A DNA stretch of 64,000 bases from an uncultured Chloroflexia bacterium (lineage in GTDB: Bacteria; Chloroflexota; Limnocylindria; Limnocylindrales; CSP1-4). Shown here in pieces: positions 8,574 through 62,142 of the stretch. A model generated the notes under the pieces. The model did not search any database. It saw only the letters and a program-made list of their open reading frames with translations, and was not told the DNA's origin. A program made the position numbers and the translations under genes. The stretch spans positions 32,001 through 96,000 of the forward strand of contig CAVYIM010000007.1 of NCBI GenBank assembly GCA_963768655.1, given 5' to 3'. Positions within the stretch are counted from its first letter, which is position 1. Each line of letters opens with the position of its first letter.

Positions 8574-8758
8574 CTCTGCCTCCGGATCCTCAAACCGGGC
8601 AACTCGTGGTTCAAGTTGCACTCACACAATTGTGACTCCGGCCCTGTCGTTTAGGTTCTACCGCGTTTCGTTGGCGCTGGCAGGATGGAGCGCAATGGCG
8701 AACGGACGCTATCGCGGCGTCGTGACGACCGCCTGCGGTCCCTTCTCGCGTGCGGCGG

Positions 8759-8980
8759 TCAGTCGACTTTGGCGAAGAGGCTGAAGAGACCGTTCAGCTC
8801 CTTCTCCGTCAGGCCGAGGTCATAGTCGATGAGAAGCAACTGAACCTCGATCTGCTCCACCTCCGCTCGTGAAGGCGTGGCGTTGGATACCCGTGCCGCG
8901 ATGGTGTGGGCCAGCCCTTCCAGCCTGGCCATGCGCTGGGCGGCCGCGTTGATCCGAGCAACTATCTCAGCGTTGGTCAT
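8759..8980 (-). CDS. Small helical hypothetical protein (73 aa)
   Basis: GAGGAG RBS, ATG at 8980. Confidence 0.6.
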   Translation of the reverse strand: MTNAEIVARINAAAQRMARLEGLAHTIAARVSNATPSRAEVEQIEVQLLLIDYDLGLTEKELNGLFSLFAKVD

Positions 8981-9558
8981 GGTTCTCCTCGTTGCCCCCG
9001 AAGAAAAGCGCGTCCTGAGGGGGATCAAACGCGCCCAATAGGTGGAGTCTAGAACGCAGCGGGGGTTCCTTGTCGGCGCTGGGCGGTGGCGCTTTCTGGC
9101 GCAGCGTTGCACGTCCACATGACGCCTTCTCGACACCGTGGCGACCCGCTGCCTCGCCAGACTCCGGGCCCGCTCCGCGAACAGATGCTCGCCCGAGCCT
9201 CCGTCGGCCATTTGGTCCGGCCTTCCCTGGCGGGGCCTCGACCCTGTCTGACCCAACGGTTGGCGCTGGCCTCTGTCGTCACCCACCAACGAGTCTTACC
9301 CCGACCCTCGATGCGACAGGCTTGCCCTTGCTAGTAGTCCCTGGTCACCGAGCACCATCGCCCGATCGTGAGGAGTCGAAAGGAGGAAGATCGCGACCAT
9401 CGGATTGGCCGCTGGTTCACAGTCAACCCTTGGGGAGCAGGCGGCCAGCAGTCGGACCTCGTTCTCGCCGGCCCGCGCCACAGGCCAATCATTCACTCAG
9501 TCATACTGCTGCCGTGGGGCGACGCCACAGGTGATTGGTAGCCGACGGGGAGTCGCTG

Positions 9559-10929: not shown

Positions 10930-11126
10930 GGGAGAAGCGCCATGGTCCAGGGCCGACGTCGCCTTCAAGTAGCACCCGACCGCCATGGCTTGATAGCGCA
11001 CGGGAGGACGAGGCCACTCGGTGCTGGCAGGTCGCGAGAGCGACGCTCTCAGGTTGAGATCAAGGTCTCAATCCCGTTGGCTACTGCGTCTTCAAGCGGC
11101 TCCTCGCGCCCCTCCCCGAGGCCGGC

Positions 11127-12572: not shown

Positions 12573-12576
12573 GGAT

Positions 12577-12628
12577 ACCTCCCCCGTTCGGCAACGAACG
12601 GGGGAGGTCGCCTACATCGCTCCTCCCC
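12577..12628 (-). promoter_or_regulatory. RBS-sequestering hairpin with alternative pairing
   Basis: Perfect 14-bp stem acctcccccgttcg-gcaa-cgaacgggggaggt; second GGGGAGG at 12622-12628. Confidence 0.5.
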
Positions 12629-12959
12629 GCGGCCGCCGGACCGGCGCTCACTCTACTCGCCGCGCTGGGCCGTGCAAGAGTTTGGGCAGGGACCGGACGC
12701 TTGCGCGAATGGCCCGCGTCTCCGGCCTGCCGCCCCGGCGTAGTAGGCCAGCCCACGCGAATCCGTTGGTGGGTGCGCCCTCAAAGACCATTGCGGGGCA
12801 AGACTATTACGCGTCGACACCATGACCACATCGCGACGGGTCGGTGTCGGCACGCCGCCAAAAGGCGCACCATATCCTCTGGAGACACGGCGACGCATCT
12901 GAGATCGTCAGAGCGGCCAAGCCACGTCTGAGTTCAACCCAACATCAGGAGGCACGCGC

Positions 12960-13418: not shown

Positions 13419-13584
13419 ATCTCCGTGGTCGAGCGTTCGAGCGGTACCGTATTGGCGCACGCTGGCGAACGAAGCGTGCCGGACCCGGCGACACGATGCG
13501 CGGATCGTGACCGGCTCAATCTCGGACGCGTGGCCGGGTGTCACCGTCAGGTCGGTGGTCGGACGAGCGAGGTAAGCACTCCCT

Positions 13585-15390: not shown

Positions 15391-15396
15391 TGCGAT

Positions 15397-15969: not shown

Positions 15970-16087
15970 GTTGGGACAGGGTATTCACCTCCATCGGCAG
16001 GGACAATCCCTTGGCCCTGCCCAGGCTGCACCATGAGCAGATAAGTTGGTCAGGCCCAGACGGCGACTCGCCTCGAGTAACTTGGTG

Positions 16088-16609: not shown

Positions 16610-17045
16610 GCCGCCCTCGAGCCGCTCATGGCCCGCAGAATACGCCAGGCGGAGCGCCCTCGAAGCAGCCGCTCAACGGCCGCCAGGATAGGGGGCGGGT
16701 CGACCCGGCCGATCAATATCGTCACCATCCAGCGATAGCGTGAGCCCAGAGCGGGCAGAGTCGCCGGTTCTGAGAGCGTGCAGCCGCTGGCCGTGTCCGC
16801 CGCGAACGGCAGCAGCCGAGAGTGTGCTTCTGCTTAGACCAGCCAGTTCAAACAGGGTAGACTACCCGGCGGTTCCTGCCCCAAGGGTCAGCACAACCGT
16901 CGCGAGGCTTCGAGGCGGCGACCCGCTCATCGGCGGGAAGAGCCGCTGGTAGCGTACCGGCGCTGTGTTGGACTTGAAGGCCCAACAGGGCCGGGGGTAT
17001 CTACGATTCTCGCTCTGCGCAGATTGGTTCACCAAGCAGCTGCTG

Positions 17046-17831: not shown

Positions 17832-18061
17832 TTCCTGTGCTCGCTGAGCAAGCGTTTCGGCGCGCCTCCGCCTCGGCTGGCGAATTCCGCGGCTCCGCCC
17901 CGGGCCTTTTCGTGTCAAGTCCGCATTCATGACGTGATACATTAGCCTGCGACTGGCCCTGCGAATTACGCAGGGCCGCCGATGGGGTAGCGCAGGGGCG
18001 CTCGACCGGCTTTGCAGGCATCGAGGAGGGCTTCGGTGTGCGTACGTCAGGTTCGGCATTG

Positions 18062-21000
18062 ATGAATCGAACGATGCGGCACGGCAGGCTCGCTGCTGTA
18101 GTCACCGTCGCAATCCTGGTCGCAGGTCTGTCGCCCGTGTTGCCGGTCATAGCTGCCACAAGGCCCGGACCTCTCCCGCCCGTCCTGACGCCTAGGATCG
18201 ATCCTTCGGCCGCGCAGAGCCTGGCCCGCTCGACCGCTCCCACGGCCGAGACGTCGAGGCCGACGGCCGGCGCACCTGATGCCGCCGGTTCCGGCATGGC
18301 CCCGACCGAAGTCCCGTCTCTGCGCACGGCGTATAGCGACACCTACGACAACCACGACGGCACGTTCACTGTCCACGTGAGCCCCGATCCTATCAACTAC
18401 CAACCGACGGCTGGCGCGGCCTGGACGCCCATCGATCTGTCCTTCGCGCCGATCTCGGGCGGCAGCGGCCGAGTCAGAGCCGGGATGACGCCGGTCCCGG
18501 TCGAGGTCGGGGCGCCCGGCGACGCGGCTGGCTTTGTGAGTGTCGACACCGGCGAGGGCGTGATCAGCCTCCGGCTCGTTTCTGGGGCCAAGCAGGGCAG
18601 CTCGGCATCGGAGCCTGTGGCCGCAGCGGGCGGCGCCAAGGTTGCTGGCCTGCTCCCAGGCGTTGATCTACAGGTCAGCGCCAATCCCTCTGGCTTCAAC
18701 ACGTTCCTCGCTTTCGCCTCTAGACCCGCTTCCCCCTCGTTCACCTTTGAGCTGGACTCACCCGGGCTGACCCCTGCTCTGCAACCCGACGGCTCAATCA
18801 GTTTCCTAGACAAGAGCGGCATGACGGTTGCCACGATGCCCCATCCCTATGCCGAGGATTCGACGCCCGACGATCAGCGCGGCAGCGGGCAGATGACGGT
18901 CGACGTCGTCTATTCGCTCGCTACCCAGGGCGCCACCACCCTGCTCACGGTGAGCGTCGATCCGACCTGGCTCGCGAGCGCGGTCTATCCGGTCTATGTC
19001 GACCCGTCGGTCAATGTGAGTACCACCGCCAACATGAAGGACACCTTCGTCGACGCGATGTACCCGACAGAGAACTGGGAAGGCTTCAAACGCTCGGACT
19101 CCCCCTACTACTACGAGATGCTTCTCGGAGAAGACCCCGACAACTCGACGCAAGTCTGTAAGGACCTGCTCAGCTTTACGATGCCGGCCGCGGTTGCAAG
19201 CTCGACAATCGACTCGGCCACGCTCCAGATCTTCCCCTACTGGCAGTACGAGCACTACAGCGCGGTCACGACTTGGGTCGACCAGGTGACATCGAGCTGG
19301 AGCGCGGGGAGCGTAGATTGGAACAACCAGCCGAGCATCACCACGACCGGCGCCGTGACGGCGACGACAGTCCAGGGCACGACCGGATCATTCGACATCA
19401 CGAGTTTCGTGCAGGGCTGGGTCGACACCCCTTCGACTAACTACGGCATCCAGCTGAACGAGAACGGCAACGGCGGCACCTATTGGAAGCGCGTGATCTC
19501 GTCTGAGCAGACCGGCGCCAACATACCCACGCTAGCGATCACCTACAGCAAGCCTACGGCGACCGTGTCCGCACCGACCGGTAACGTGTGGACCAACAGC
19601 CGCACCCTGACCTGGGCCTACACCTCGACCGACGGCCCGGCCCAAGCCGCCTACGACGTCCAGGTTGCGACCGACTCTGGCTTTACCAACCTCGTCGTCA
19701 ACACGGGCAGCCAATCGGGCGCTGCCTCCAGCTACGCGATCCCATCGGGCACCACCCTGACCAACGGCACGACCTACTACTGGCGAGTCGAGGTTTCCGA
19801 TGGCCATATCTGGTCGGCCTGGACCGCCGCGGCTCAGTTCCGCTGGGACGCCACGGCGCCAGCCTGGAAGGGTTTCACCGCGCCCGCTGCGCAGGTCGAC
19901 CAGTCGGCGGCCTCCTACACTTTCGCCTGGAATGCTGCGACCGATTCCCCCGGGTCCGGGGTCGCTGGCTATAGCCTGCAGGTCCAAACGGCTGCGATCT
20001 CGTCTACAGCCAACGTGTGCTCCACGACATGGTCGAATTCTCGGTACGGTCCAGCCCCTAACCACCACCAGCTACGCGGTTTCCTCCATGACTGGCGCCA
20101 CGTGCTATCGAGTCGGCGTATTCGCCACGGACGCAGTCGGCAACCCAAGTAGTACGTACAGCTCCAGCCCGGTCCTGGTCGACACGACCTCGGCCAACGC
20201 CCCGACGGTCACCGACAACTGCACTTCGCTCGGCTCCTGCTATCGGGTCGGCAACACGATCTACTTCCGGCCTGCAGCAGCCGGCACGCTCAGCCTGACC
20301 TCGACCGGCACGGACAACGAGTCTGGCATCGCCTCCTCGACCTTCGGCGCGCTCTCGGCTCCGACCGGCTGGACCTATACCTCGGGCACGGTCACGGGCA
20401 ACCCGGCCTCTAAGAGCGTCACCTGGTCGAGCACGGCCGGCAGCACGACGCTCCAGATAACCACCACCAACAATGCCGGACTCGTTTCGCCCGCCACGAC
20501 CATCACCTTCACACCGGACTCAACGATCACAGGTTCCTTCACCACGCCCGGCAGCAGCCTCGTCGTTCAATCGGGCACGAGCTACTCGGTCGCCTGGACT
20601 GAGACAGAGACTGGATCTGGCGTCGCGAGCCGCTCGCTGCAGCGTCAGAAGGGGACCGTCGCCACGGCCGGCACCTGTACCGGAGTCACCTTCGCCAACG
20701 ACGGTAGCCCGTCCACATCTGCCTCACCGGTCAACGCCACCGGTCTGGTCAGCGGCAACTGCTATCGCTGGGCTCTGACCCTCACCGACAACGTCGGCAA
20801 CATTGCGACCCTAACGTCGGGTTCGGTCCTGGTCGACACGACCTCGGCCAACGCCCCGACGGTCACCGACAACTGCACTTCGCTCGGCTCCTGCTATCGG
20901 GTCGGCAACACGATCTACTTCCGGCCTGCAGCAGCCGGCACGCTCAGCCTGACCTCGACCGGCACGGACAACGAGTCTGGCATCGCCTCCTCGACCTTCG

Positions 21001-24000
21001 GCGCGCTCTCGGCTCCGACCGGCTGGACCTATACCTCGGGCACGGTCACGGGCAACCCGGCCTCTAAGAGCGTCACCTGGTCGAGCACGGCCGGCAGCAC
21101 GACGCTCCAGATAACCACCACCAACAATGCCGGACTCGTTTCGCCCGCCACGACCATCACCTTCACACCGGACTCAACGATCACAGGTTCCTTCACCACG
21201 CCCGGCAGCAGCCTCGTCGTTCAATCGGGCACGAGCTACTCGGTCGCCTGGACTGAGACAGAGACTGGATCTGGCGTCGCGAGCCGCTCGCTGCAGCGTC
21301 AGAAGGGACCGTCGCCACGGCCGGCACCTGTACCGGAGTCACCTTCGCCAACGACGGTAGCCCGATCACCAGCGTCTCCCCGGCAACGTTCAGCGCTCCG
21401 GTGGCCGGCTACTGCTACCAATGGGTGCTCACGCTTACGGACACCGTCGGCAACGTCGGAACCAGCACGTCAGGCATGGTCATCCGCGACACCAGCAGCG
21501 CCCTCGGGCAACAGAGCCAGCTGAGCCTTGAATTCCTGGGCTCTGGGATCGGGCGACGGGGCGGACGTCAACGTCGTCACTGGCGACCTGGTTGTGAGCC
21601 ATTCGATCGTGAGCCTGCCCATCCGCGGCAGCTCGGTCTCGCTCGATCTCACCTACAACAGCCAGGATCTCGCGAACGTCGGTCTCGGCACCGGCTGGCG
21701 CGTAAACGTGCAGCGGCGGCTCACGCTCAACCCCGACGGCAGCGTGACCCTCGTCGACTCCGACGGGGCGCGATACCTGTTCACGAACCCCGTCACCAAC
21801 GGCACCGTCACGACCTACGCGCGGCCGGCGGCTCTGTTCGCGACCCTGGTCGAGGACACGAGCCAGCAGAGCCAGTTCACCCTGACCTACAAGGACCTCT
21901 CCCTTGACCGCTTCCTCATCTCCGGGTCCGACGCGCTCCTGGTCCGCCAGCAGGATCGCTTCGGCAATGGCGTGACGATCGCTTACAACAGCGGAACCGA
22001 GGACATCTCGACCGTTACTGACGACACGGCCCGAGTCATCAACTTCACCTGGACCACCACTACCTCGCCCCATCAGCTCGCCTCGATCACCGACTGGGCC
22101 TGGATCAACAGCTCGGGCGTCGTCCAGACGAGCGCCACCGGCTCTCGCCGGACCTATCGCTTCTTCTACGACGGCAGCGGCGCCCTGATCGGCTGGGCCG
22201 ACCCGCTCAACGCGTCAGGCACCTGCCCGACCGGCGGGAGCCATCTGACCTGCCTGACCTACAGCGGCGGCCAGCTGACCGGCATTGCCAAGACGCAGAC
22301 CTACACCACCTTCAACGGCAGCTCGCTGGGCGCTGCCACCCGCGTGGCTTCGACGAGCTTCGCCTACTCTAGCGGCGACGTGGCCGGCGTCACCGACGCC
22401 CTGACCAACCAGACTACCTTCGACCGCTCGACACCGGGCCAGACCACCGTTCATCGGCCGGCCAGCGGCGCGGTCACATATGCCTTCGCGGCAGCCGACC
22501 CGTACGGCCGTGTCACCTCGGTCTCGCGCAGCCTGTCGGGCACGCCGATCGTGCAGACGACGGTCTGGGACGCCGCCTTCCCGACGCTGCCCGACTCGGT
22601 CACCGACAACTCGACCGGAGCTCTGAGCACGCCCTCGCGGACAGTGACGTATACGTACTTCGCAGGTTCGATGGGCAACCTGGCGCGGGAGGTCGAGCCT
22701 CTGACCGCGACGACCGACCGGCGGACCGATTACACGTACAACGCCAACAACGACGTGACCCAAGAGATCGTCAGCCAGGATGGCTCGACGACCCTTCAGA
22801 CCACCACTCGATACTGCTACGACAGCGGCTGCTCGCTCAGCGGCAGCGGCCTGTCGATACTCAGCGAAATCGACGACTACGTCTCGGGTAGCTCTGCCAC
22901 AAACGACACCAACGTCCGGACCGACTACGCCTACGACGCCTACGGGCAGAAGACCCGGACCACGCGCCACAACCGTGATGCAGCAGGTGCTGACCTCGAC
23001 GACCGCATCGACGCGTCGGTCTACAATTCGTATGGCGACGTGACGGCGTCGATCACCAACTATGCCGACGGCCAGGTGACCGGCGGCACCGACGTGACTC
23101 CCGATGCCAGCGGCGCCCGGACAGACCTGACGACCACGTACACCTTCGACACCGCCGGCAACGAGGTCAGCGTTGCCGACCCGCGCCGCGCGATCGAACT
23201 CGCTCTCGGATCTGCGGGTGCCGACGACTATGTCACCCGCTCCACCTTCGATGCCCTCAACGAGAACCTGAGTCAGACCACCCCGACGACTCCCGGGGTC
23301 AGCGGCGTCCCCAGAAGAGCTCGTCGAGCGTCTACGACGAATTCGGCTCGGTCCGAGCTGCAACCGACCTGAACGGTATCGTCACCGGCACAGCCTTCGA
23401 TGCCGGTGGCAACTCGACCGCTACCTATGAGATCGACCCCTCGCCTCTCGGCGCCTCACAGACGTCGTCTTCTACCTATGACGCCGCCGGTCGCCTGGCC
23501 ACCAGCAAGGACGCGCGGCAGGTCGCCAACGGCGCCCTAGGTCACACCGCCTACGGATATGACGATCTCGGGCAGCAAGTCTCCGTCACCGACGCCGCGG
23601 GGTCCAGCCCCGACATCTCAAGCGAGACGACAACCACTTACGATGCCCTCGGGCGCAAGACGGCAGACGACTACTCAGTCGGCGGTACGTCCTATACCTA
23701 CGATTTGGGAGGCCGAGCGCTCACGACCGACGACGGCCTGTCCTGCTCGACGAGCACGTACGACTACCAGGACCGGACCACGACCACTACCAGCGGCCTG
23801 AACACCGGGACCTGCACCGATGGCGGTGACGGCTCCACGACAACCAACACCTACGACGGCCTGGGTCGGCTCACGCTGGCCCAGATCACTGCGGGCGTGA
23901 ACGTCGGAGACAAGACAACCAACGATGTCTACGACTCCGCGGGCGACAAGCTCTCCGACTCGACCACCAAGTCCGGTGTGGTGGCGACCGCCACCACGCA

Positions 24001-26339: not shown

Positions 26340-26444
26340 AGCCAAGCGCAAACCGGCGGAAGTGTCGGAGTTGTCCGGTCGGGTGATCGCCTTGGCGCGC
26401 TCGCCAGATGCACGCGTAGGTCTCGGGTCATTGACTTCAGCGCG

Positions 26445-28006: not shown

Positions 28007-28172
28007 CGATGGATCATAGCAACGACGCTAAGCCGAATGGGTCCTGTCGACGACCCACTGGTCGGCGAAGGCGTGTTCAGCCCCGCTCCGCACCTTACCC
28101 GTATAGTGTCGGCTCTAATCCTCTGAGCCCGACCCAGAAGAACCTCGTTTGTGAGGGCAGCCTAGATGGCGG

Positions 28173-29036: not shown

Positions 29037-29223
29037 CGGCCGGCCTCCCACAGGGTACGCAGGGACGCTAGAGCGACGGCAACTCGAGGTCAAGCCACCG
29101 CCGTCGCGCAACCAAGCCGAGCCCTCAGCTCAGGATGAACAACGTCGCCCGAGCACCGTGACGATGCAGCCATCGTGTTGCCGCCGTTCGACGCCGGCGC
29201 CAGTGGTTCTTGGCTCCGCGCGA

Positions 29224-30372
29224 TCACCCGCCGGCCGCGACTCCCCGGGCCAGGAGCTCGTCGTAGCGCACAGGATCCACGTTCCCCCCGCTCAGGATGG
29301 ACACCACGCGCCCGCTCGCCGGCAGTTCGTCCTCGTGGAACAGCCAGGCGGCGAGGGTAGTGGCGCCGGACGGTTCTAGCACCAGCCGCGCTTCCCGCGA
29401 CGCGCGGACCATGGCCCGGGCGATCTCATCCTCTGTCACGGTCACGATGCCGTCGAGATAGCGGCGCAACAGCTCGAACGGTATGCGCCCGATGTGGGTA
29501 GTCCGCTGGCCGTCGGCGATCGTCCGTCCGACCATGTCCGCCGGCCAGATCACGATTTGGCCCTGCTCGAGCGAGTCACGGGCGTCCGCGGCCAGAGCCG
29601 GTTCGACGCCGACCACGACGGCGTCCGGCCGAAGCGACTTCACCGCTACGGCCACGCCGCTGGCGATCCCGCCTCCGCCAACCGGGACCAGCACGGTGAA
29701 TGGTGCCGGTTCGGTCCGGCGGCCCCTCGGAGTCGTGGGTTTGCGCTCGTCGAGGGAGGCGAGCTGCTCGACGATCTCGAGTCCGATGGTTCCCTGGCCG
29801 GTGATCGTGGCCGCGTCGTCGTACGGCGCGACCAGCGACAGACCGTCGACCCGCGCCAGTTCGGCGGCCCGCTGCGCCCGCTCCTCACTCGATGGGCCAA
29901 CGAAGACGATCTCGGCGCCGTCCTCTTGGACACGCTCGACCTTGATCCGTGGCGCATCCGAAGGCATCACGATCACCGCGCGGACCCCGAGGAGTCGAGC
30001 GGCGCGCGCCACGCCTTGGGCGTGGTTGCCGCTCGAGTGCGCCACTACGCCGGCGGCACGGCGTTCCGCCGACAGCGCGGCGATGTTGTAGTAGGCGCCA
30101 CGCAGCTTGAACGCGCCGATCGGCTGGAGAGACTCCGGTTTCAGCCAAGCGCGGGTGCGCCCAAGTGGGTCGCCGTCCTCGGGCCGCCCGAAGGGCAGCA
30201 GCGGCGTGCGCACGACTACGCCCCGGATCACTTCGGCGGCGCCGCGGATGGCGGCCAGGGTGACCAGCGCCGCCTCGTCGAGCCGTGCGTCCGATCGAGG
30301 GTCCGGGATTGGTGAGACGGTCGGCGGCTCCGGCGCCACGGGCGGGAGCTGAGTCGGTCTTCGTGGAGGCAT
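29224..30372 (-). CDS. PLP-dependent threonine/serine dehydratase family protein
   Basis: KPESLQPIGAFKLRGA, SSGNHAQG, VGGGG, SGGN. Confidence 0.9.
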   Translation of the reverse strand: MPPRRPTQLPPVAPEPPTVSPIPDPRSDARLDEAALVTLAAIRGAAEVIRGVVVRTPLLPFGRPEDGDPLGRTRAWLKPESLQPIGAFKLRGAYYNIAALSAERRAAGVVAHSSGNHAQGVARAARLLGVRAVIVMPSDAPRIKVERVQEDGAEIVFVGPSSEERAQRAAELARVDGLSLVAPYDDAATITGQGTIGLEIVEQLASLDERKPTTPRGRRTEPAPFTVLVPVGGGGIASGVAVAVKSLRPDAVVVGVEPALAADARDSLEQGQIVIWPADMVGRTIADGQRTTHIGRIPFELLRRYLDGIVTVTEDEIARAMVRASREARLVLEPSGATTLAAWLFHEDELPASGRVVSILSGGNVDPVRYDELLARGVAAGG

Positions 30373-30643
30373 GTCCAGGCCACTATAGTGCCGGCAACCC
30401 TCTCGACCGCCGCCAGCCGGCCCTCGGGAAGCCGATCGAGCGAAGTAGCGGCGCTCCAGAAGCAGCCTCGCCTCGTGGCCTCAGCCCCGCGCCACTCGAC
30501 CAGCCGGCACGTCAATCGCAGTTCGTCTGTTTCAGCCCATACTTGGCCAGTCCCGGGTCGAACGACAGCCGCGTGGGATGAGACAGACTGGCACCGACCT
30601 TCACCTCGGGTTACGTAGCGGATCAGGACAGGAGCGGTCTCCA

Positions 30644-30751
30644 ATGACACTCGCCATCCTCGGCGTGCCAACCCACATCGCACTCATCGCGGTGGTCATC
30701 ATCGTGGTCGTCGTGGCGGCGGCATGGTGGTTGATCGACCGTCGCAAGTAG
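30644..30751 (+). CDS. 35-aa single-TM small protein
   Basis: AGGAG RBS; MTLAILGVPTHIALIAVVIIVVVVAAAWWLIDRRK (below ORF-track cutoff). Confidence 0.55.
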   Translation: MTLAILGVPTHIALIAVVIIVVVVAAAWWLIDRRK

Positions 30752-30795
30752 GTCACGCCGAGCGTTGTGCCGATCGCTCCGAGCCGGGCTACCTC

Positions 30796-30879
30796 GATCG
30801 ACCATTTGTGCCCGCCGTCACGGACGGCAAGACCGGTGCGATCCGCTTCTTCGGCCGTGTGGTCGATCCGTCCTCTTGG
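30796..30879 (+). pseudogene. Serpin C-terminal remnant
   Basis: DRPFVPAVTDGKTGAIRFFGRVVDPS matches the serpin terminal DRPF...TG.ILF.GRV.DP motif. Confidence 0.55.
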
Positions 30880-30959
30880 CGGACCCCGTCGCTATTCAGC
30901 CAGAGCGGCCATCGAAGCTACTGCCGAGTGCCAGAGTGCGAGCCCTGCCCAACTTCCGG

Positions 30960-31406
30960 CTGGTGACTGGCCGATCGCGCCTGGCGCAGCTCACGAGCAG
31001 GACGCTGGCGCCAAGTCGGATCGCCAAGCAAGGCGGATGGGCGAAGTTCGAGTTCACCGCGAGCGTCGACGCCATCTGCAATGTGAGCTACGTCCTATCG
31101 GATCGAAGCGCTGGCAGCGGGACCCAGGTGGATGCGAGCGCCGGCAAGGTGACCGAGGACGACATGTACATCTCTCCCAGCGTCGCTCCCGGCCACGGTG
31201 AGTTCACCCTGACGTGCACCGATATGGACGGTAACTCCAAGATGGCGACCGGAACGTTCGAGGTACTGTCCGCGTCGGCGACACCGACGCCTTCGGCAGC
31301 TCCGACAGCCCCTCCGACCGAGGCTCCGACGGAAGCGCCGACTGCGAAACCGACGGCCCGTCCGACCGAGGCTCCGCCTGCTGCTCAGACGCCGACTCCG
31401 TCCTGA
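30960..31406 (+). pseudogene. Fragment of secreted Ig-like protein with PT-rich tail
   Basis: Plausible coding only in the 3' part of ORF 30765-31406; no signal peptide. Confidence 0.4.
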
Positions 31407-31502
31407 ACACGACCGAGAAGACGGGACCAGAGACTGGGCTAGGGCTCGCCGAGATCGATGGAGTCATCGTCTCGGCGGAGTGCCGCTCGTCTTGTCTAGC
31501 GG

Positions 31503-33056
31503 TCAGCCGGCAGTCGGCACTCCGATCCAGAAGCGTGAGCCGTCATCGGTGGCGAGAAGCCCTGTAGGGCCCAGAGCCACATAGGGGTTATCCCACCACG
31601 GCAGGTCGCCGATCTGCTTGAGGGTGACCAGCTTGAGCTTGTCATCCTGGGCAATCAGGGTCAGCGAAGAGTTATCTGATGCTGCCCAGCCCCACCCAAG
31701 TCCGCAGCTTCGGCCAGCCAATATGGGCTGTAAGAACAGCTGCGGGAATCCCTTGACGAGATTCCAGGTCTTCCCATCGGTGGAGACCCAGGAAGCCAGG
31801 AAGCCCGACCCTGTATCGGGGGACCACTCCTGCGCCACTAGCATGTGGTCGTCTATCCGATAGACGTTCATGCTGATGGTTGACGGACCGGCCCTGGTTC
31901 CGCTCAAGTCCTCGGGGCTCCAGGTCGTGCCGTCGGGAGACCACCACAGTGCGACCTGATAGATGGACGTGTCCGGCTCTACGACGCCACAGCCGAGAAA
32001 GGGACCTTGATATGGGAAGAATTCTCGGCCCTTCGACTTGAGAATGGTACCGGGCAGGACGTAGCCGCCTGCGAACGAGACCGGGTCGTATGCCCATGAT
32101 CCGGTCGTGAGAGCCGGCGCTGGGAGCGCGCCAAGCTGCCAGTTCCTGCCGTCGCTCGAGGTCCAGATGCTCTGCTTGAGGTAGGCTGTCCCAAGTGCGA
32201 CAAAGCCGCTGGAGCCGCCAGAGATCGGGCCGATCCCGCCCGCTCCGAAGACGCTCGGCATGTCGATCGGGGTCCACGACTTCGCGTCCGAAGACGACCA
32301 CATCGTCTCGGGCGTGAGTCCGGGCGAGGTCGCGCCGCACATTCTGCCGCAGTCGACCTGCCCCCGAATCAGGAGGCTGTCTGGCCCCTCTTGGAACTGG
32401 ATGACCTCGAACACGCAGTCGGCTCGCTCGGCGGCGTTGAGTCCTCTGTCATAGCTCTTGAACCAGGAGTTCCAGACGCTGATGTCGATGGTCGATCCGG
32501 AGCTCCAGGTCAGCCCATCCGCCGAAACCCAGGGCGTCAGGGCACGGCTCTTCGGGTTCCATAGGAACTCGACGTAGCCGCCGCTCCAGGCTTCGAGTGT
32601 GGCGTTGTAGACGCCACTCGCGACGGCAATCTCGGATCGGGGCGGCACCGCTGGCGAGTGGCCACCGGGAATTGCGATCCAGTCGAGGCCGGTCCAGGTG
32701 GCGGTGGGAGTGGGGCCGACGCTTGGCAGCGGACCCGTGGGCGGGGGTGGCGTGGGTGTGGCGATCGGGATCGGGCTCGGAGTGGCGGTCGGCGCCGGTG
32801 TGGCGGTCGGCGTGGCGAGATCCGGCGACAATAGGGCGGCCAGGCTCGGGGTAGAGGTCTCCGTCGAACCACTCGCGGTCGCCGATGGCGTCGCCGAGGC
32901 GGAGAGCGACGGTGAAGCAGATGGGGATGCCGACGCGGTTGGCGACGGACTGGCCGCCGCGGTGCACGCCGCCGCGGTGAGGGCGATCAGCACCACCGCC
33001 GCCAGCCAGAAGCAACCCCGCCTGCTGCCGTGACCCAGATCAGATGCCCACTCCAT
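31503..33056 (-). CDS. Secreted lipoprotein with WxSxDGxxW (BNR/Asp-box-like) repeats
   Basis: Lipobox AAAC, PST linker, repeated WxSxDG. Confidence 0.8.
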   Translation of the reverse strand: MEWASDLGHGSRRGCFWLAAVVLIALTAAACTAAASPSPTASASPSASPSLSASATPSATASGSTETSTPSLAALLSPDLATPTATPAPTATPSPIPIATPTPPPPTGPLPSVGPTPTATWTGLDWIAIPGGHSPAVPPRSEIAVASGVYNATLEAWSGGYVEFLWNPKSRALTPWVSADGLTWSSGSTIDISVWNSWFKSYDRGLNAAERADCVFEVIQFQEGPDSLLIRGQVDCGRMCGATSPGLTPETMWSSSDAKSWTPIDMPSVFGAGGIGPISGGSSGFVALGTAYLKQSIWTSSDGRNWQLGALPAPALTTGSWAYDPVSFAGGYVLPGTILKSKGREFFPYQGPFLGCGVVEPDTSIYQVALWWSPDGTTWSPEDLSGTRAGPSTISMNVYRIDDHMLVAQEWSPDTGSGFLASWVSTDGKTWNLVKGFPQLFLQPILAGRSCGLGWGWAASDNSSLTLIAQDDKLKLVTLKQIGDLPWWDNPYVALGPTGLLATDDGSRFWIGVPTAG

Positions 33057-33112
33057 GCCATCCCCTTGTGCTGCCGCGGTCTCATCGAACAGGGTTGGGA
33101 CGCCATCATGAT

Positions 33113-43003: not shown

Positions 43004-43446
43004 GGCCGCTCCCTGACGTGCTGTCTCAGGTCACCGAGCGACGAACCTCTCGAGGCTGCGTCCGGCTTCGTCTGCACTAGTATTCGCTTTCAGCGGGCGA
43101 AATGCCGCTCTTTCCACCCGGTCGCTGACGCCGCGTAGCTCGGCGGTGGCTCGTGATCCTAGCCAGAGGGTAGCGTCGGCTTATCGCCGCGCAACAGGCT
43201 GGCTGTCGCCGGCTTGATGCGTGAGGCGAAGCTCGACCAGCGACACTCGACCGTCATCCTGACTGACCTCGCCGAACTGGCGAAGGTCCTCGTGTCGGCG
43301 GCGTGACCAAAGCAGTCACGTGACGTGACCGGCACCATCGCCCGCTCGTGTCGGGGCGATGGTCGGGGCGAGAGGACTTGAGGCCGAGATAACAAGCGAA
43401 CCCGCGGCGCAGAGGGAATGTGGCCGGCCCGGCCAGCGCGCGGCTC

Positions 43447-49129: not shown

Positions 49130-49444
49130 ATGCTTGGTCGCCCAACAACCGTAGGAACACCGACACGAAAAGGCATCGGAGATTCCGCTGCGCCGGCAGA
49201 GCTAGCCAGGAATGCTGGGAGCCCCAGTGGACTTCAGTCAAGCACTCGCAGCGGCGTCTGGGATCTGGTCACCGGCCGCCCGCTTCGCTGCTATGCGCGG
49301 ATCATGTCGTTGGGACTTCCAGTGCGCCGTGCCGCGCTGTTCGTCCGACGATCCCGGCCTGGCCGCTCGGGCGGCTACGTCGGGGGCCCGCTCAGACCGG
49401 ACCCGTGGCGACCCACCATCTGCCGGGTCATACTGGCTAGCCGT

Positions 49445-49930: not shown

Positions 49931-50108
49931 GGAGCGTGGCCCATTCCCGCTGTGCGGGAGAAACCCAACACTGGCGCGCGCCGCGGTCGTCGTCTCTCTG
50001 GCCATTGCGTCACGATGTTCGCATCGTGAATGCTGGCGACGCGAGCCCTAGACACTCATGGCATACGTGGACCTCCGCCTTGATCTAGTCTCGTGACAGC
50101 GGCAAGAG

Positions 50109-51597
50109 GAGGATGTCCCGCTCGTCGTGGAATTTCAGTGAGGGTCGGGTCTCCAGGTTGCTGATCATATCGGTTGGTTGGTAGCGCTCGCCTCGCTTTC
50201 GATGTGGAGCTCGCGCTTCAGCGCAGCGGCAAGAATGGGCAGCTCCCGATAGCCACAGACTCGGCGGAACTGAGCCTCTGCGGCGAGCATCCCAGCGGCG
50301 GCCCAGCGCAGCGCCATCTCGCCCGACTCCCAGTTCTTCACCCGGCGGGCGTGCGTCTTGACGATCTCGATCATCGATTCCATCGGGTTGGTCGACTCGA
50401 GCGTCCTCCAGAGCGAGCCGCTGATGCCCAGACGCGTCAGGGTGAGCGTGTCGTCGAGCCCCTCGCGCAGCGACGCGGCGGCTCCCGGACGGCTGTGGGC
50501 CAGACTGCGGGCCAGGGAGTGGAGGGCCGCCTTCGCCCTGTCCGGATCTCGCTCGGCCCAGGCGGCCCGAAGCCGGCGCTGGGCGAGCGGTCGTTCGATC
50601 TCGGGCAGGTGCTCTAGAACGTTGCGCTCTTTGTGGCGATGGCAGCGATGGATCGCCACGCCTTTGCCCAAGAAGGTGGGGATGGCCGAACCGATGGCGG
50701 AGCCGCCGTCGACGACGAAGAGGACGCCTGCGCTTGTGTCCAGACCGCGATCGCGCAAGTCCGCCAGGAGCGCGTTGACCACCGCGCTGTTCTCGGTCGT
50801 GCCCTCGACCACGCCGAGGGGCACCTTGTGGCCGGCGGCGTCGATCCCGAGCGCGCCTACGAGCAGGTGATCGCCCAGGCGAAAGCCATCGAGCATGAGC
50901 ACGAGGTAGCGGCGGTCGTCGAGTCTGCGCCCGAGCAGCTCAGCCAGGCGCTCTGCCGTGGCGGCGAGGAAGCGGCGGCTGACGGCGGCGTGGCTGGTCG
51001 AGACGGCGGCCTCCTCGATGGCCTCGCCAACAGGCTCGAGGCCAACCGGATAGTCGCGAGTCGAGAGCCCCGCGAGCATCCGGGCGACGATCCCGTCGGC
51101 GAGCAGATCGCTGGCTCTCGCGGCCTCGTAGGTCGCGAGCGGCAGCTCGGCTGCTCCATCGGCACTTCGCACACGTGGCCGCTCGACGCGGAGTCGGCGG
51201 CCGCCCAGGGTCACGGTTCCGGCTTCACTGCCATGGCGATAGGCAACTCGATCCGCTCGGTGGCGGCCGCGTGGGCCGGCCAGGCCGTCAACCTCAGCCG
51301 CCATCAGCTCGTCGAGGACCTCGAGGCCGACCGCGGTCGAAGCGGCCAGCAGGCCCTCGCGCAGATGGCTCGCGAACGTGGCGAGATGGCCCTCGAGCCG
51401 CCCTGTCAGCTCAGCAGGAAGCTGGTGAACGAGACGGCGAGGTCGGCGGCATCGCTTCTCAGGGCGGGGCCGGACGTGGGACGATGGCATGGGTTCCTCC
51501 AGTTCGACTTTCCGGGTCTCCCGTAGCGTGACAGCTCACGCTCCGGGCTGGAGGACCCTCCCCTCAACTCAAATTCCACGGAACTCGGGACAACCTC
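50109..51597 (-). mobile_element. IS256-family element, complete, transposase 50165-51490
   Basis: Same protein as 47416-48741; 8-bp TSD GGCAAGAG. Confidence 0.95.
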
Positions 51598-54122: not shown

Positions 54123-54163
54123 CACGTTGTCGAAAACAGCTTCATCTGAGGTTGTGAGAGAAG

Positions 54164-56331: not shown

Positions 56332-56758
56332 CGAACGCAGAGGCCGGGGCAAGGCCACTTGAATCGAGGGTCTACTAGAGGATTGCCCGTCGGACCACGA
56401 CCGAAGCCGTCGCTATGAGCAGCTCGTGTCGATTGTGACAAACGGTCGGCTGGCTGCCCTTGTTGGGCGTTCTCTGACGATCTGTCAGCTCCTGCTCCAG
56501 TCGGCAAGTAGGACTGGAAACGAGGCGAGGTGTCCGCCCGACCGGGCGGATGACGGCTGAAACGGGTTCGCGCGTCCCAGATGGCGCCTGGCTGGCCGCC
56601 ACAGCGTCGGGTTCGCGGCCGTCCTAGTGCCGACCTGGTGGCCCACGCCCCATAGGCATGTGCGTCACCAGTGGAGCCCGTTCATGCAGAATCGTTTCGG
56701 CAACCTCATCGGCAACCTCAGGTGCAACGAACGGGTTGGATCCTTGAGGGAGGGCGCA

Positions 56759-58411: not shown

Positions 58412-58531
58412 GCTGCCGGCGCGGAACAACCAGCGTAGGTCAGGCGTCTCCTAGGTGGACGAGGCTCTGACGCTCCAGGGCGATCCTTCATCCGTACTCA
58501 CCCGGTGCCTCTCTCGAAGCGGGGAGTGGGA

Positions 58532-60268
58532 ATGACCCTGGTTGAGCCGCAGAAACGAACGGCTCGAGTGGCGCGAGCGGCCCTCAGCTGGGGCGTCGCC
58601 ATTCCTGCGCTTATCCTCGCCCTCCTCTCCATCGTCTCACTCGCATACTTCTTAGGGTTCCTGCGGCCCCTTGCCCGAGGAGTCGACGCGGTCTGGCCAA
58701 TCGATGCAGGCGACGCCAGCCCGAGCTTCGCGCTTCTGTCCGCCGTCGGCCTGGGAGCCCTGAGCGTCGGGCTCCTGAAAGGCAAAGCCGTTGCCTGGTG
58801 GCTGGCGGTTGCCACCCTGGTCGTTGCCCTGCTGTGCCAGGCTGCGACTCTCGCGCACCCGCTCGGTGTCGTCGTCGTGGGCGGCCTGTTGTCTGTTCTC
58901 GTCGCCGACAACCGTCACTACGAAGTCGAGACCTCTGCCAGCTGGCGCCGGCGCGCTCTAGCCCTGATGGTGGCGGCGGGTGTGCTCGTCGGCCTGGAGA
59001 CCTCACTCGTCATCGCTGCCACGGGCTCATGGCCTGGTCCCCTTGGCCTCCTCAGCGACGCGACGGCAGCCTTGGGCAATGCCTTTGGGATCAGTGACGC
59101 CACGGCGGGTGATCTGCTCAGGGTCACCAGCCACAATGTGCTTCTGGCGCTGCTCATCGTGGCTGCCCGCCTGCCGATCGTCCTGGCCGCGATCGGGGTC
59201 CTTTCCCCTGCTCCGGAGCATGCGCCCGACCCCTCGACCCGGGCTCGGGCGCGGGAGATAGGTAGGCGGTTCGGCTGCGGGGCGCTACTGCCGTTCCAAC
59301 TCGGCGACGACAAGTTCGTCTTCGTTCCGGCCGACGCCGACGGCATGGTCGTCTATGGCGTCGCGGCCGGTACGGCAGTGGTCCTGGGCGACCCGATCGG
59401 TCCCGCCCAGGAGACTTCCAAGGTTCTGGCCGCCTTCCTCGCTCGATGCCACAGAGTCGGCAGGACGCTGGTCTTCTATCAGGCCAGCGGCCCCGGCAGC
59501 GGTGCCCTGGCCCAGGCCGGGTTTCGCGTGTTCCGTGTCGGCCAGGAGGCGGTGGTGGAGCTGGGCACCTTCGATCTAAGTGGCCCACGGCGGGCCAATC
59601 TGCGACACACGATCACGCGCTGCCGCAGAGCCGGCGTCTCGATTCGCTGGTTCGCCTCGGGCATCGACCCGGCTGTCGATCCGGGGCTCGGTGCCCAGCT
59701 TGCGGCGCTAGATGAGAGATGGCGCCTGGAAGTTGGACCCGAGCTCGGGTTCACGATCAGCCAGTTCGACGCGGCCAACTTGCGCTGGCAGCCAGTCGCG
59801 GTCGCGGTCTCGGAGACCGGCCACCCGCTCGGTTTTGCGACGTTCAGGCGCACGGGCACAGATGGCGGTTGGGTCGTGGACCTCATGCGCCGGGCTGGCG
59901 ACTCTCCGCCCGGTGTCGTCGAGTGGTGCATCGCCGAGGCGGCGTCGGCCTTCCGGGCCGGCGGCTCGAAGACCCTGTCGCTGGGACTCGCACCGCTGGC
60001 CGGGCTCGAAGCGGACGGGGTGGCCGAGGAGCGGCTTCTGCGTCTCGGCGCGTGGGTGGTCCGTCGCTGGTACGACGTGCGCGGGTTGGCGTTCTTCAAA
60101 GGCAAGTTCGACCCGATCTGGGTGCCCCGCTACGGCGCCATCAGACACCGACGCGATATCGTCGGCTTCGTTGTTGCCCTGTTGCTAGTACATGTGAGGC
60201 CAGTATCGATGTTGCCGCGATGGCGCCGCCCGGTCCCCCTGGCCGCGAGCGGCTCTTCTGCCCGATGA
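58532..60268 (+). CDS. MprF/LysX-like aminoacyl-phospholipid synthase domain (DUF2156) membrane protein
   Basis: VVLGDPIG, GQEAV, DLMRR, LSLGLAPL, GL..FK.KF.P.W.PRY. Confidence 0.85.
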   Translation: MTLVEPQKRTARVARAALSWGVAIPALILALLSIVSLAYFLGFLRPLARGVDAVWPIDAGDASPSFALLSAVGLGALSVGLLKGKAVAWWLAVATLVVALLCQAATLAHPLGVVVVGGLLSVLVADNRHYEVETSASWRRRALALMVAAGVLVGLETSLVIAATGSWPGPLGLLSDATAALGNAFGISDATAGDLLRVTSHNVLLALLIVAARLPIVLAAIGVLSPAPEHAPDPSTRARAREIGRRFGCGALLPFQLGDDKFVFVPADADGMVVYGVAAGTAVVLGDPIGPAQETSKVLAAFLARCHRVGRTLVFYQASGPGSGALAQAGFRVFRVGQEAVVELGTFDLSGPRRANLRHTITRCRRAGVSIRWFASGIDPAVDPGLGAQLAALDERWRLEVGPELGFTISQFDAANLRWQPVAVAVSETGHPLGFATFRRTGTDGGWVVDLMRRAGDSPPGVVEWCIAEAASAFRAGGSKTLSLGLAPLAGLEADGVAEERLLRLGAWVVRRWYDVRGLAFFKGKFDPIWVPRYGAIRHRRDIVGFVVALLLVHVRPVSMLPRWRRPVPLAASGSSAR

Positions 60269-61896
60269 CCCGCCTGGCGTCTTTGCGCGCGCTGAGCGGC
60301 CTGCGGACCCCCCTCCTCAGCGCGTCCGTCGCGGCCGTCATGATCGTGGCGTCGGTCGTCTCCGGAGCCAGAGATTCATCGAACACCACTCTCGAGCTCA
60401 TGGGTTTCGATCCGGATCGCGCCGAGCTGATCAGCTCGCTGCTGATAGGGGGAGTAGCCGCGGCCGCAGCCACCTTCGCCACCGGGAGAGGCGGCCAGGC
60501 GACGCTGCTGGGCCTCGGTGGTTTCGTCGCTCTGTTCGGCCACACCTTTCTTCGCGAGACCGGCGATGCCCTGGCATCGCCCGCATTCGAAGGCTACTTC
60601 GATCTCAGCGGCTGGCTCTTGACCCTGCTGACCCTGCTGACTGTCGGCCTGATCTCGGGCTGGATCGGGGCCGTGCTTGCTCTGTCGCTTCGCCCGGGGT
60701 TGATCGAGGCCGGCTCTGCCGTGCGCGACGCCATCGCGAGCCGGCAACTCGACCGTCGTCGGCTGCGACTGCCTCTCGCCGCGGCCCTTGTGCTGGTCCT
60801 GTTGATCATCACCGTGCCGGTCTTCGGTGACATGGTCAACTACACGCCCGATGCGAGAATGCTTGACGGCGGACCCCCGGCGGCGGGACTCGTTCCGGGT
60901 GGGCAGGTCGACTCCCCGACGCCAACGGCCAGCTCGCCCCAGCCGACGGGGACCGGCCTGGGTTCGACGCCACAGCCGACGGGGACCGGCCTGGGTTCGA
61001 CGCCACAGCCGACGGGGACCGGCCTGGGTTCGACGCCACAGCCAACTCCCTCGCCGGTCGACCCGCAGCCATGGTTGGCCTGGTTGCCATCGGGCGGCGG
61101 CTCGGTCACGTGGCCGGCTATGCGGGCTCCCTGGACGGGTGGCCCGATTACGAACGACGTGGCCATCTACACGCCACCGGGGTACGAGCGAGGAGGTAGC
61201 CGGCGCTATCCCGTCCTATACGAGACGCCCTTCGGATACGGCAGCTGGGATTCGGCCATCAACATCAGGGGGATTCTTGACGCACTGATCGACAAGGGGG
61301 CGATTCCGCCGATGATCGTCGTCTTCGTGAACTCGGGCGACGGGCCGTATCCCGACACAGAGTGCGCCAACTCGGTCGACGGCGCGGAGTGGATGGATAC
61401 GTTCATCAGTCAGACGCTTGTGTCGTACGTCGACACGCACTACTCGACAATCGCCCAGGCTAGCGCACGAGCCATAACCGGCTTCTCGCAGGGCGGCTAC
61501 TGCGCCGCCATCCTGGCGCTCCGCCATCCGACCGTTTTCGGTACCGCCATCCCGATGTCAGGTTACTACTGGGCAGGAGCGGCCGGCTCCAATTCGAGGC
61601 TTCCATTCGGCGGGAACGCCGCTGCCTTGAGGGCCGCCTCGCCAATGGTCGTCGCTACCGAGCTGCCAGCGGCGGAGCGTGCTTCGCTCTTCTTCATCGT
61701 GGGTGCCGAGGCCAGCCAGCCCTTCTACGGTCCCCAGGCCACCGCGTTTGAGAACCTGCTGGCCGCCCAGGGCTACTCCTACGTGGTGCAAGACGCCAAC
61801 GTTAAGCACGGCTGGGTTCAGGCGCGGCACCTGTTCCCAGGTGCAGTGGAGGCTTGGGCCGCGCATATGGTCGCTGCCGGGGTGTTCGCGTCGTAG
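60265..61896 (+). CDS. Second membrane-anchored esterase, paralog of 56759-58411
   Basis: ATGA overlap; MGFDPDRA, YTPPGY, GFSQGG, HGW. Confidence 0.85.
   Translation: MTRLASLRALSGLRTPLLSASVAAVMIVASVVSGARDSSNTTLELMGFDPDRAELISSLLIGGVAAAAATFATGRGGQATLLGLGGFVALFGHTFLRETGDALASPAFEGYFDLSGWLLTLLTLLTVGLISGWIGAVLALSLRPGLIEAGSAVRDAIASRQLDRRRLRLPLAAALVLVLLIITVPVFGDMVNYTPDARMLDGGPPAAGLVPGGQVDSPTPTASSPQPTGTGLGSTPQPTGTGLGSTPQPTGTGLGSTPQPTPSPVDPQPWLAWLPSGGGSVTWPAMRAPWTGGPITNDVAIYTPPGYERGGSRRYPVLYETPFGYGSWDSAINIRGILDALIDKGAIPPMIVVFVNSGDGPYPDTECANSVDGAEWMDTFISQTLVSYVDTHYSTIAQASARAITGFSQGGYCAAILALRHPTVFGTAIPMSGYYWAGAAGSNSRLPFGGNAAALRAASPMVVATELPAAERASLFFIVGAEASQPFYGPQATAFENLLAAQGYSYVVQDANVKHGWVQARHLFPGAVEAWAAHMVAAGVFAS
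60940..61043 (+). repeat. 33-bp x3 in-frame tandem repeat (QPTGTGLGSTP linker)
   Basis: cagccgacggggaccggcctgggttcgacgcca three times. Confidence 0.9.
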
Positions 61897-62142
61897 GTCG
61901 ACCACGGCGCGATGCGGGTCCACATTCAAGCTGAAGCCGGCACGATCCAGCGATCGTGGCGATCGTCGTGGCGGCGACCAGCCACCCGGCTTGGGTCGGT
62001 GCCGATGCGCCTAGCCATGCCCCGCCTGCGTGGGTAGGATGAACTCGCTTGTCGGCGATCGGGTATTGGCCCTCGCAACGAGCGACGGATCCGGAACATG
62101 GAGGCCTCGACTGTGTCCGGTAGCGAGAGGGAGCTTGGTTCG

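Follow-up and report, generated by a model that had tools for sequence, protein, structure and literature searches.

A stretch of 64,000 nucleotides from an uncultured peat bacterium of Candidatus Limnocylindrales (Chloroflexota), referred to here as the window, contains two arrays of short palindromic sites, each of which starts beside a gene for an Xer-like tyrosine recombinase. The window (G+C 66%) spans positions 32001-96000 of contig C7 in a metagenome-assembled genome (MAG) of 3.37 Mb and 9 contigs. Within each array the sites differ in a 6-bp centre, the intervals between them (slots) carry unrelated genes (cargo), and the centres follow one order that recurs in related genomes. From these comparisons we infer, with a probability of about 0.65, that the loci are cassette arrays which would exchange cargo between like-centred, lox-like sites by means of their own Xer-like recombinase, with the order of the sites preserved.

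The sites of the two arrays

The sites conform to an 18-bp motif, CACSAT-N6-ATSGTG, in which symmetric 6-bp inverted arms enclose an asymmetric 6-bp centre (sites are designated below by the first position of the centre). The window contains 5 exact matches, and 9, 17 and 88 matches when at most 1, 2 or 3 mismatches are allowed. In 100 dinucleotide shuffles, matches at ≤1 mismatch averaged 0.42 and never exceeded 3, against the 9 observed. Over the whole genome the exact motif occurs 9 times, 5 of them inside the window. Exact sites reach 0.117 per kb in the arrays against 0.0012 in the rest of the genome; the enrichment of strong sites, defined throughout as those with at most one arm mismatch to the motif, is 97-fold for exact copies and 22-fold at 1 mismatch. 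Fifteen of the 16 array sites (Table 1) lie between called open reading frames (ORFs), the exception being 49295, which lies within a weak ORF.

The initial annotation of this DNA had singled out 11 sites by capitals or a coordinate, and all 11 were present with the centres ascribed to them; the centres it had written in lower case were located at 8219 (GGCCAA), 10987 (GGCTTG) and 12824 (GACCAC). Some of its sites have weak arms: 8713, 16035 and 56417 carry 3 mismatches and 49295 carries 4. Calling sites by the arms alone at 3 mismatches was rejected, the density of such matches in the arrays being that of the genome background. These four were kept as sites because their centres and their order were seen in other arrays; in addition, the right flank of 49295 is common to the GCGCGG sites of two other arrays (L014 and L055). 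Genome-wide, weak sites with centres of the recurrent vocabulary described below were mostly scattered noise outside three clusters, on contigs C7, C3 and C8.

A conserved order of centres among relatives

Nearly all relatives of the recombinase came from peat, fen and soil, in MAGs with the label Candidatus Limnocylindrales or Chloroflexi. The comparison set comprised 135 loci, 55 from species-representative genomes and 80 from metagenomes; each covers at most 10 kb of array and was turned so that the array runs rightward from the recombinase gene. Across these arrays the centres, to which we gave the class letters A-L, follow the order GACCAA (A) > CGCGGC (B) > CRCCCG (C) > GGCTTG (D) > GACCAC (E) > GCGCGG (F) > GCACGC (G) > GTTCGC (H) > GAGCAG (I) > CCAGCG (J) > CAGGTC (K) > GCAGCC (L), each site type occurring at most once per array. 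The 110 strong sites of the genome set had only 38 distinct centres and no centre occurred as its reverse complement, so that all these sites have a single polarity. When 137 arrays were collapsed to 111 by near-identity, 170 strong sites with 43 centres remained, and the probability that two random sites share a centre was 0.081.

The conservation of vocabulary and order that the initial annotation had proposed to check by permutation was borne out twice. In a first test, restricted to centres seen at least twice and to arrays with at least two such sites (26 of 57 arrays), 81 ordered pairs followed the majority order and 1 did not; shuffled arrays had a mean of 16.2 and a minimum of 7 minority pairs, and none of 2000 shuffles was as good. 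The second test used a held-out set of 54 metagenome arrays that had no near-identical copy in the set defining the vocabulary. Here 52 of 59 strong sites had vocabulary centres, and the 15 arrays with at least two such sites gave 30 concordant and 0 discordant pairs (0 of 5000 shuffles as good). Counting as order-breaking, among the 111 non-redundant arrays, any site left out of the longest order-respecting chain of its array, 1 of 138 strong sites deviated; with weaker vocabulary-centre sites added the figure was 5 of 227 (85 arrays). The exact motif was also found in 16 of 18 other genomes of the genus, with up to 21 copies per genome, against 2 of 12 genomes in a sister family, and a reversed-pattern control gave 0-1 matches in the relatives' genomes. 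Whole-genome matches in relatives fit the same order (D>F>L on G009:C33, I>J on G005:C45).

Outside the 18 bp, flanks are unconserved both within and between classes. Within them, some classes have arm variants of their own: the right arm is ATCGTC in class B and ATGGTG in class A, and the left arm is CACGAC in class G. The centres of A and E differ at one base, other classes at 2-6 bases. Variation within class A (GACCAA, GGCCAA, CACCAA, TGCCAA) and within class C (CACCCG, CGCCCG, TGCCCG, GGCCCG, GACCCG) is confined to centre positions 1-2; positions 3-6 show the least variation inside a class. Four extra centres, CCGAGG, CCGATG, CGAAAC and GACAGA, occur only proximal to class A, which hints at an attI-like role of the first site.

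These results bear on whether the arrays might be a product of chance or of picking out matches to a degenerate motif in GC-rich DNA selectively. With 3 mismatches allowed, the motif is indeed as common outside the arrays as inside, four of the sites first proposed are that weak, and about a quarter of the weak vocabulary-centre sites may be noise (14 in a wrong-strand control against 53 on the forward strand). The enrichment, the order, the held-out validation, the distribution of the motif among relatives and the breakpoints described below nevertheless exceed every control, and we regard chance as refuted.

Two further identities for the sites were considered and rejected: abutting transposon ends with target duplications, since the two centres that flank a cargo differ, and parS or Type I restriction-modification targets, since the centres are variable yet position-specific.

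In one locus, L090, the sites at 2076 and 3936 from the recombinase start have the centres CAAGCG and CGCTTG, which are mutual reverse complements (CGCTTG is one base from GGCTTG). This is the sole inverted like-centred pair that we saw, and it bounds a candidate invertible segment of 1.9 kb.

Comparison of the two arrays

The initial annotation had claimed that five of the six centres of array 2 recur collinearly in array 1. This was confirmed for CGCGGC, CGCCCG, GCGCGG, GAGCAG and CCAGCG; the sixth, GTTCGC, recurs regularly in other arrays as part of the vocabulary. The pairing of 41282 with 8713 held in part. The site at 41282 has the CGCGGC centre and the class B right arm, but by flanking homology it is the positional counterpart of 8219. 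We therefore describe it as a hybrid, in which the proximal flank and left arm are joined to a class B centre and to the right arm ATCGTC. Of the sites predicted to follow beyond position 64000, GCAGCC was found at window-equivalent position 65940 (C7:97940), whereas ACCCGT was absent at up to 5 arm mismatches; in its place CAGGTC stands at window-equivalent 64788. TCAGCC at 30896 and 67672 was discounted as a site: both copies have 5 arm mismatches and lie inside a duplicated block.

The genes between the sites are unrelated in the two arrays, as had been claimed, except for insertion sequence (IS) copies and a 46%-identical paralogue of the metallo-beta-lactamase (MBL) fold. At the DNA level, homology covers the recombinase gene and its upstream flank (78%) and ends at the left arm of the first site; part of the sequence downstream of the recombinase gene is also homologous. 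At the other end, a block 98.6% identical between the arrays starts exactly at GCAGCC (29166 in array 1, C7:97940 in array 2).

This right-hand block (29145-31529 against C7:97918-101177) consists of a PALP-family enzyme gene and a 213-aa ORF. The copy in array 2 has an extra insertion of about 870 bp, after which the two copies align again, at 90% identity. No site was seen where the block ends, and the PALP gene was found in 0 of the 135 fetched loci, which reach at most 10 kb into the arrays.

Identity breakpoints and shared cargo

We compared the positions at which homology between arrays begins and ends. The counts of segment-pair ends and of homologous cargo pairs given below refer to the 111 arrays left after collapse by near-identity; the former count omits segment pairs shorter than 250 bp as well as ends that lie within 30 bp of where a sequence stops. 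Among 68 internal ends of megablast high-scoring segment pairs, 39 lay no more than 20 bp from a site and 26 no more than 12 bp, against 4.8% and 3.0% for random positions. About half of the site-proximal ends fall at the first site. Individual arrays are mosaics that switch at site edges. For example, the sequences of L087 and L101 match at about 98% from the recombinase gene through the end of the CACCCG site and are unrelated beyond it. In L129 the slot from CGCGGC to CACCCG is 98.2% identical to that of L087 and L101, against 86% for its recombinase region, and the slot before it is unrelated. L105 and L116 have exactly the slot from GACCAC to GCGCGG in common, at 91%.

Recently shared cargo tends to lie between the same centres: in a test that makes no use of the vocabulary, the same centre was present in both arrays at 13 of 16 internal breakpoints. 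Exceptions are a GTTCGC/GCACGC case and one cargo that lies inverted in another slot, both taken up below. By tblastx, the 137 inter-site segments gave only 40 homologous pairs between arrays. Of these, 22 were in compatible slots against an expectation of 24.5%, and the high-identity pairs other than IS were all compatible except one (C-E of L011 against A-B of L081).

Homologous recombination or template switching at the 18-mers, with the neighbouring recombinase uninvolved, would also place breakpoints at the sites, as they are the only sequence common to otherwise unrelated cargo. However, 18 bp is very short for RecA-dependent exchange, and only 12 of the 18 are common to all sites; exchange at this common sequence would not alone maintain the order, the polarity and one copy per class. 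This explanation also leaves aside the dedicated, highly conserved recombinase gene that heads most of the fetched arrays, and we consider it very improbable.

Only slightly less improbable is that the sites are operators or other regulator-binding sites, perhaps with the recombinase homologue as repressor, which have been kept by descent while the cargo turned over by other processes. Palindromic sites of which 15 in 16 are intergenic, a first site in the recombinase's own upstream region, and sites far from any recombinase gene all suit such a role. Position-specific conservation of the 6-bp centre and a single polarity do not, and we agree with the initial annotation that an operator model does not explain ordered centres. 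The exact switches of identity at site edges are likewise unexplained by regulator binding, and the flanks beyond 18 bp are unconserved within a class.

The recombinases

The two Xer-like recombinases are 83% identical to each other (257/311 residues) and are the only close copies in the genome, whose other tyrosine recombinase genes are 25-31% identical and lie elsewhere. The catalytic set of tyrosine recombinases is R-K-H-R-H/W-Y. In an alignment to XerD (1a0p), which covers the stretches TGRRRAE, GKGGKRGRR, HILRH, LDHSSL and SVYL, the R..K..HxxR..H..Y positions are conserved. The proteins scored 82-92 bits with the NCBIfam XerC and XerD equivalog models, against cut-offs of about 330, and were also far under the cut-off of XerA. 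Judged by these scores, and by the presence of many sites rather than one, the arrays are not chromosomal XerC/XerD-dif systems. The integron integrase model TIGR02249 gave 45.0 and 46.4 bits (cut-off 265) and NF011946 gave 29.8 and 25.2 bits (cut-off 435); the structure of IntI4 was a weak partial match only.

In most fetched loci this highly conserved gene heads the array. It occupies one end and is divergent from the array, with 35-70 bp between gene and first site (in array 1, 35 bp as counted from the start of the gene). Copy number is high in some MAGs, with at least 9 loci in one (SPRUCE 597) and at least 3 in several.

Six arrays (L034, L035 and L051, from one MAG, and L031, L033 and L038) are headed by more distant recombinases, about 70-74% identical. 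Their centres are partly different (TCCACG, GTGGTG, GCCGGG), with GACCAC, GCGCGG and GAGCAG retained, and they repeat an order of their own, TCCACG > GCGCGG > GTGGTG.

A proposed model of slot-by-slot exchange

Cre-, Flp- and Xer-type tyrosine recombinases require matching centres to complete strand exchange. By analogy, the neighbouring recombinase would act on the 18-bp sites of its array, with the symmetric arms as its target and the asymmetric centre setting polarity and partner specificity. Unlike centres within one array would be mutually inert, and an array with such centres in series would therefore not delete itself. A site would pair with its like-centred equivalent in a different array, whether resident in the same cell or carried on incoming DNA, and two like-centre crossovers would swap everything in between. 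With repeated exchange, the order of the sites would remain collinear across the population while the cargo turns over. Since an array that deviates in order would gain duplicated classes and lose material, collinearity would be self-maintaining. The initial annotation had interpreted the arrays as a natural, slot-by-slot form of recombinase-mediated cassette exchange (RMCE); the order tests, the mosaics that switch at site edges and the same-centre breakpoints argue comparatively for this interpretation.

The most serious competitor, which we nonetheless consider unlikely, is an integron-like process, in which single cassettes are excised and inserted at the proximal site by exchange of one strand pair without matching of centres, and the order of sites is the order in which the ancestral array was built. 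The recombinase gene is next to the array and divergent from it, and the proximal flank is joined to several classes of centre, as this process would predict; hybrid sites retain the right arm that belongs to the class of their centre, and the four extra centres stand only proximal to class A, as if added there. On the other hand, free reinsertion at the first site would scramble the order, from which a single strong site in 138 deviates, and cargo of internal slots has been replaced with both ends at like-centred sites. The integron-integrase score is a small fraction of its cut-off (45 bits against 265), and the sites are of an 18-bp duplex type rather than attC hairpins.

Several observations weigh against exchange between like-centred sites as the whole account. 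Some cargo has changed address: one cargo lies to the right of GTTCGC in L079 and to the right of GCACGC in L081, and an MBL-fold gene (28173-29111, minus strand) to the left of GCAGCC in array 1 matches, in the opposite orientation, cargo to the right of CGCGGC in L022 and L111 (92% identity over 1062 bp). The latter alignment extends through the palindromic arms and represents an inverted move between slots. More generally, 18 of the 40 homologous cargo pairs were in non-overlapping slots, with protein identities of 38-75% save for IS copies and one pair at 80%. The proximal flank and left arm precede a class A centre in some arrays and a B, C or E centre in others, and on the recombinase tree arrays that begin with A are intermingled with arrays that begin with B. 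To account for this, unlike centres would have to be joined repeatedly, or the first site would have to undergo events of the integron type, or else homologous recombination would have to take place inside the recombinase gene. The two arrays of the window are directly oriented, lie about 33 kb apart and have six centres in common, yet they coexist, and recombination between such arrays would therefore have to be rare or regulated. The conserved arms, at just 6 bp, are short for the binding site of a tyrosine recombinase.

In addition, two clusters of sites in the genome look like orphan arrays without a nearby recombinase. One (C3:268153-286898) has CGCGGC, CACCCG, GGCTTG, TACCAC, GCGCGG and GCGGCC in order; the other (C8:82977-88626, minus strand) has CCAGCG, GCAGCC and CGTTCC. 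No Xer-like gene was found on either contig, and the strong sites of both clusters are all intergenic. Two properties of the sample also weigh against the model. Kinship makes the arrays non-independent and inflates all the statistics on order and vocabulary, although the arrays are not merely inherited copies, because the cargo between their sites differs. The distal classes I-L rest on few arrays, because the fetched loci end at 10 kb.

Relation to known systems

The closest analogue that we found is the dif modules of Acinetobacter plasmids, where tyrosine-recombinase core sites with different 6-bp centres likewise bound modules of accessory genes. In one report, replacement of a single module is proposed to occur via a cointegrate formed at one pair of like spacers and resolved at another (PMC13141974). 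The 6-bp length of the centre is the same in both systems, whereas a pdif site has two unlike 11-bp arms, for XerC and XerD, in place of the symmetric arms CACSAT and ATSGTG. The orientation of pdif sites alternates (C and D modules), in contrast to the uniform polarity seen here apart from the single inverted pair of L090. The dif modules depend on the host XerCD and reside on plasmids; here a dedicated Xer-like paralogue heads chromosomal arrays that are present in multiple copies. Recombination of pdif sites is restricted to identical or near-identical spacers; in the present arrays, like centres at 13 of 16 internal breakpoints stand beside the hybrid first sites and the GTTCGC/GCACGC case. 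Above all, no fixed order is reported for the dif modules, whereas about 12 types of centre stand in one order across the genus studied here.

Integrons resemble the arrays in having a recombinase gene next to and divergent from the proximal site, followed by an array of hypervariable, unrelated cargo. Integron arrays without a recombinase are known as CALINs, to which the orphan arrays are comparable. The attC sites at the ends of integron cassettes are folded, imperfect palindromes of 57-141 bp, in contrast to the duplex palindromes described here, whose conserved unit is 18 bp and whose flanks are unconserved. Integron cassettes are shuffled, whereas the order is fixed here, and the recombinase lacks the signature of IntI, an integrase with an extra domain. 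By the criteria of recombinase signature and site type, then, the arrays are not integrons: they have neither an IntI signature nor attC-type sites.

Engineered Cre/loxP and Flp/FRT arrays, as used for RMCE or in Brainbow-type constructs, provide a third comparison: one recombinase, inverted arms, an asymmetric centre that sets polarity, and incompatible centres in series. They are man-made and have 13-bp arms; the arrays described here are natural, with about 12 types of centre that are presumed to be incompatible. In shufflons and hsdS inversion systems (Rci/sfx; Xer-like recombinases), a dedicated tyrosine recombinase acts on several short sites in one locus. Inverted sites there drive the inversion of gene segments, in contrast to the direct sites found here, among which L090 has the one inverted like-centred pair.

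The initial annotation knew of no description of such a system. The principle is not wholly undescribed, given the dif modules of Acinetobacter; the dedicated recombinase, the uniform polarity and the conserved order appear to be new. No description of an ordered-site array system was found in the non-subscription literature searched. The arrays appear to be a new form of the module array delimited by sites for a tyrosine recombinase, and there is a real chance that they merit a category of their own. We give even odds to the stronger proposition that they are a third natural gene-cassette platform beside integrons and dif modules, one with a dedicated Xer-like recombinase, about 12 orthogonal lox-like sites in fixed series, position-addressed cargo swapped slot by slot, and an order kept by the recombination rule itself. 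Such a slot-exchange system may show what a double-strand, pre-integron cassette system looks like.

If the model is correct, an abundant lineage of soil and peat, as yet uncultured, exchanges genes by position: a 6-bp address is kept at each boundary, and arrays of up to about 25 kb (the size seen in this window) turn over their content slot by slot. This would be a new organising principle for the pooling of accessory genes by bacteria and would account for some of the hypervariable genes that these genomes contain. It would also offer about a dozen candidate orthogonal sites for one small recombinase, useful for multiplexed cassette exchange, and the arrays would be a natural test case for how strictly homology of the centre is required in tyrosine recombination in vivo.

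Cargo and neighbouring genes

The positions of the sites, the recombinase genes and the shared block are listed in Table 1.

Table 1. Positions of array sites and associated features in the window
Feature	Position	Strand	Remarks
Array 1 Xer-like tyrosine recombinase gene	7213..8184	-	323 aa; Pfam Phage_integrase and SAM_1
Array 1 proximal site, centre GGCCAA (class A)	8213..8230	+	exact motif
Array 1 site, centre CGCGGC (class B)	8707..8724	+	3 mismatches; placed by vocabulary and order elsewhere
Array 1 site, centre CGCCCG (class C)	9353..9370	+	exact motif
Array 1 site, centre GGCTTG (class D)	10981..10998	+	3 mismatches
Array 1 site, centre GACCAC (class E)	12818..12835	+	1 mismatch
Array 1 site, centre GCGCGG (class F)	13492..13509	+	exact motif
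Array 1 site, centre GAGCAG (class I)	16029..16046	+	degenerate right arm; class I strong in L033 and L042
Array 1 site, centre CCAGCG (class J)	16723..16740	+	2 mismatches
Possible array 1 site, centre ACCCGT	28091..28108	+	2 mismatches; found in no other array
Array 1 distal site, centre GCAGCC (class L)	29160..29177	+	start of block 98.6% identical to array 2
Block common with array 2: PALP-family enzyme gene 29224-30372(-) and downstream sequence	29178..31529	.	98.6%, then 90% identity
Array 2 Xer-like tyrosine recombinase gene	40275..41210	-	311 aa; Pfam Phage_integrase and SAM-like N-domain
Array 2 proximal site, hybrid, centre CGCGGC (class B)	41276..41293	+	conserved proximal flank and left arm with class B right arm ATCGTC
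Array 2 site, centre CGCCCG (class C)	43333..43350	+	1 mismatch
Array 2 site, centre GCGCGG (class F)	49289..49306	+	degenerate arms, 4 mismatches
Array 2 site, centre GTTCGC (class H)	50011..50028	+	exact motif
Array 2 site, centre GAGCAG (class I)	56411..56428	+	3 mismatches
Array 2 site, centre CCAGCG (class J)	61941..61958	+	followed past the window by CAGGTC (C7:96788) and GCAGCC (C7:97940)

The slots range from 0.3 to 12 kb and may hold several genes in both orientations; of 160 cargo ORFs called across the arrays, 108 have the direction of the array and 52 the opposite one. A Pfam scan of 120 of these 160 ORFs returned 104 different families, among them Kelch propellers (5 proteins) and HAD hydrolases (3). 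Families seen in a single case include a ClpB-like ATPase, glutamine synthetase, ArsA, glycosidases and sigma factors. The cargo of the window comprises glycerol kinase, a GDSL lipase, RHS/DUF6531 proteins, MBL-fold proteins, esterases, an LPG-synthase C domain and a PQQ-type propeller. A near-identity search against plasmids yielded no match for array 2 and, for array 1, no more than glpK-like fragments, and so no annotated relative. As for public reads, one run contained 21% of the sampled words, and three runs gave short, low-depth contigs without informative joints at sites, mostly glpK-like pieces of other organisms.

The slot from CCAGCG to GCAGCC in array 1 is 12.4 kb long and encodes CBM96/Ig, DUF6531 and RHS-repeat proteins at 18038-25897, a region with a strongly negative GC skew (about -0.15). 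A Mutator-family IS is present in two full, inverted copies in array 2 (47416-48741, plus strand; 50165-51490, minus strand) and in a partial copy, 99.8% identical, in array 1 (26444-27348). The full copies flank the GCGCGG and GTTCGC sites of array 2 in the manner of a composite transposon, and a truncated PEMT/ICMT-like ORF (48800-49129) adjoins one of them.

Beyond the recombinase genes, a gene for a large serine recombinase lies about 2 kb past the 3' end of each Xer-like gene (3274-5112 and 37069-38811, both on the minus strand; 69% identical), and homologues occur in 18 of the 135 fetched loci. On the side of array 2, the region 31503-37174 encodes a phage-type ParB-DNA methyltransferase and a primase/helicase-like AAA_25 protein. 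The ORF at 6677-7087 matches a small-terminase Pfam model and a minor-tail PHROG; a terS-like gene was found in 2 of the 135 loci. Possibly, an integrated element of phage type has the arrays as its cargo arm. One IMG/VR contig (L136) begins within a homologue of the recombinase.

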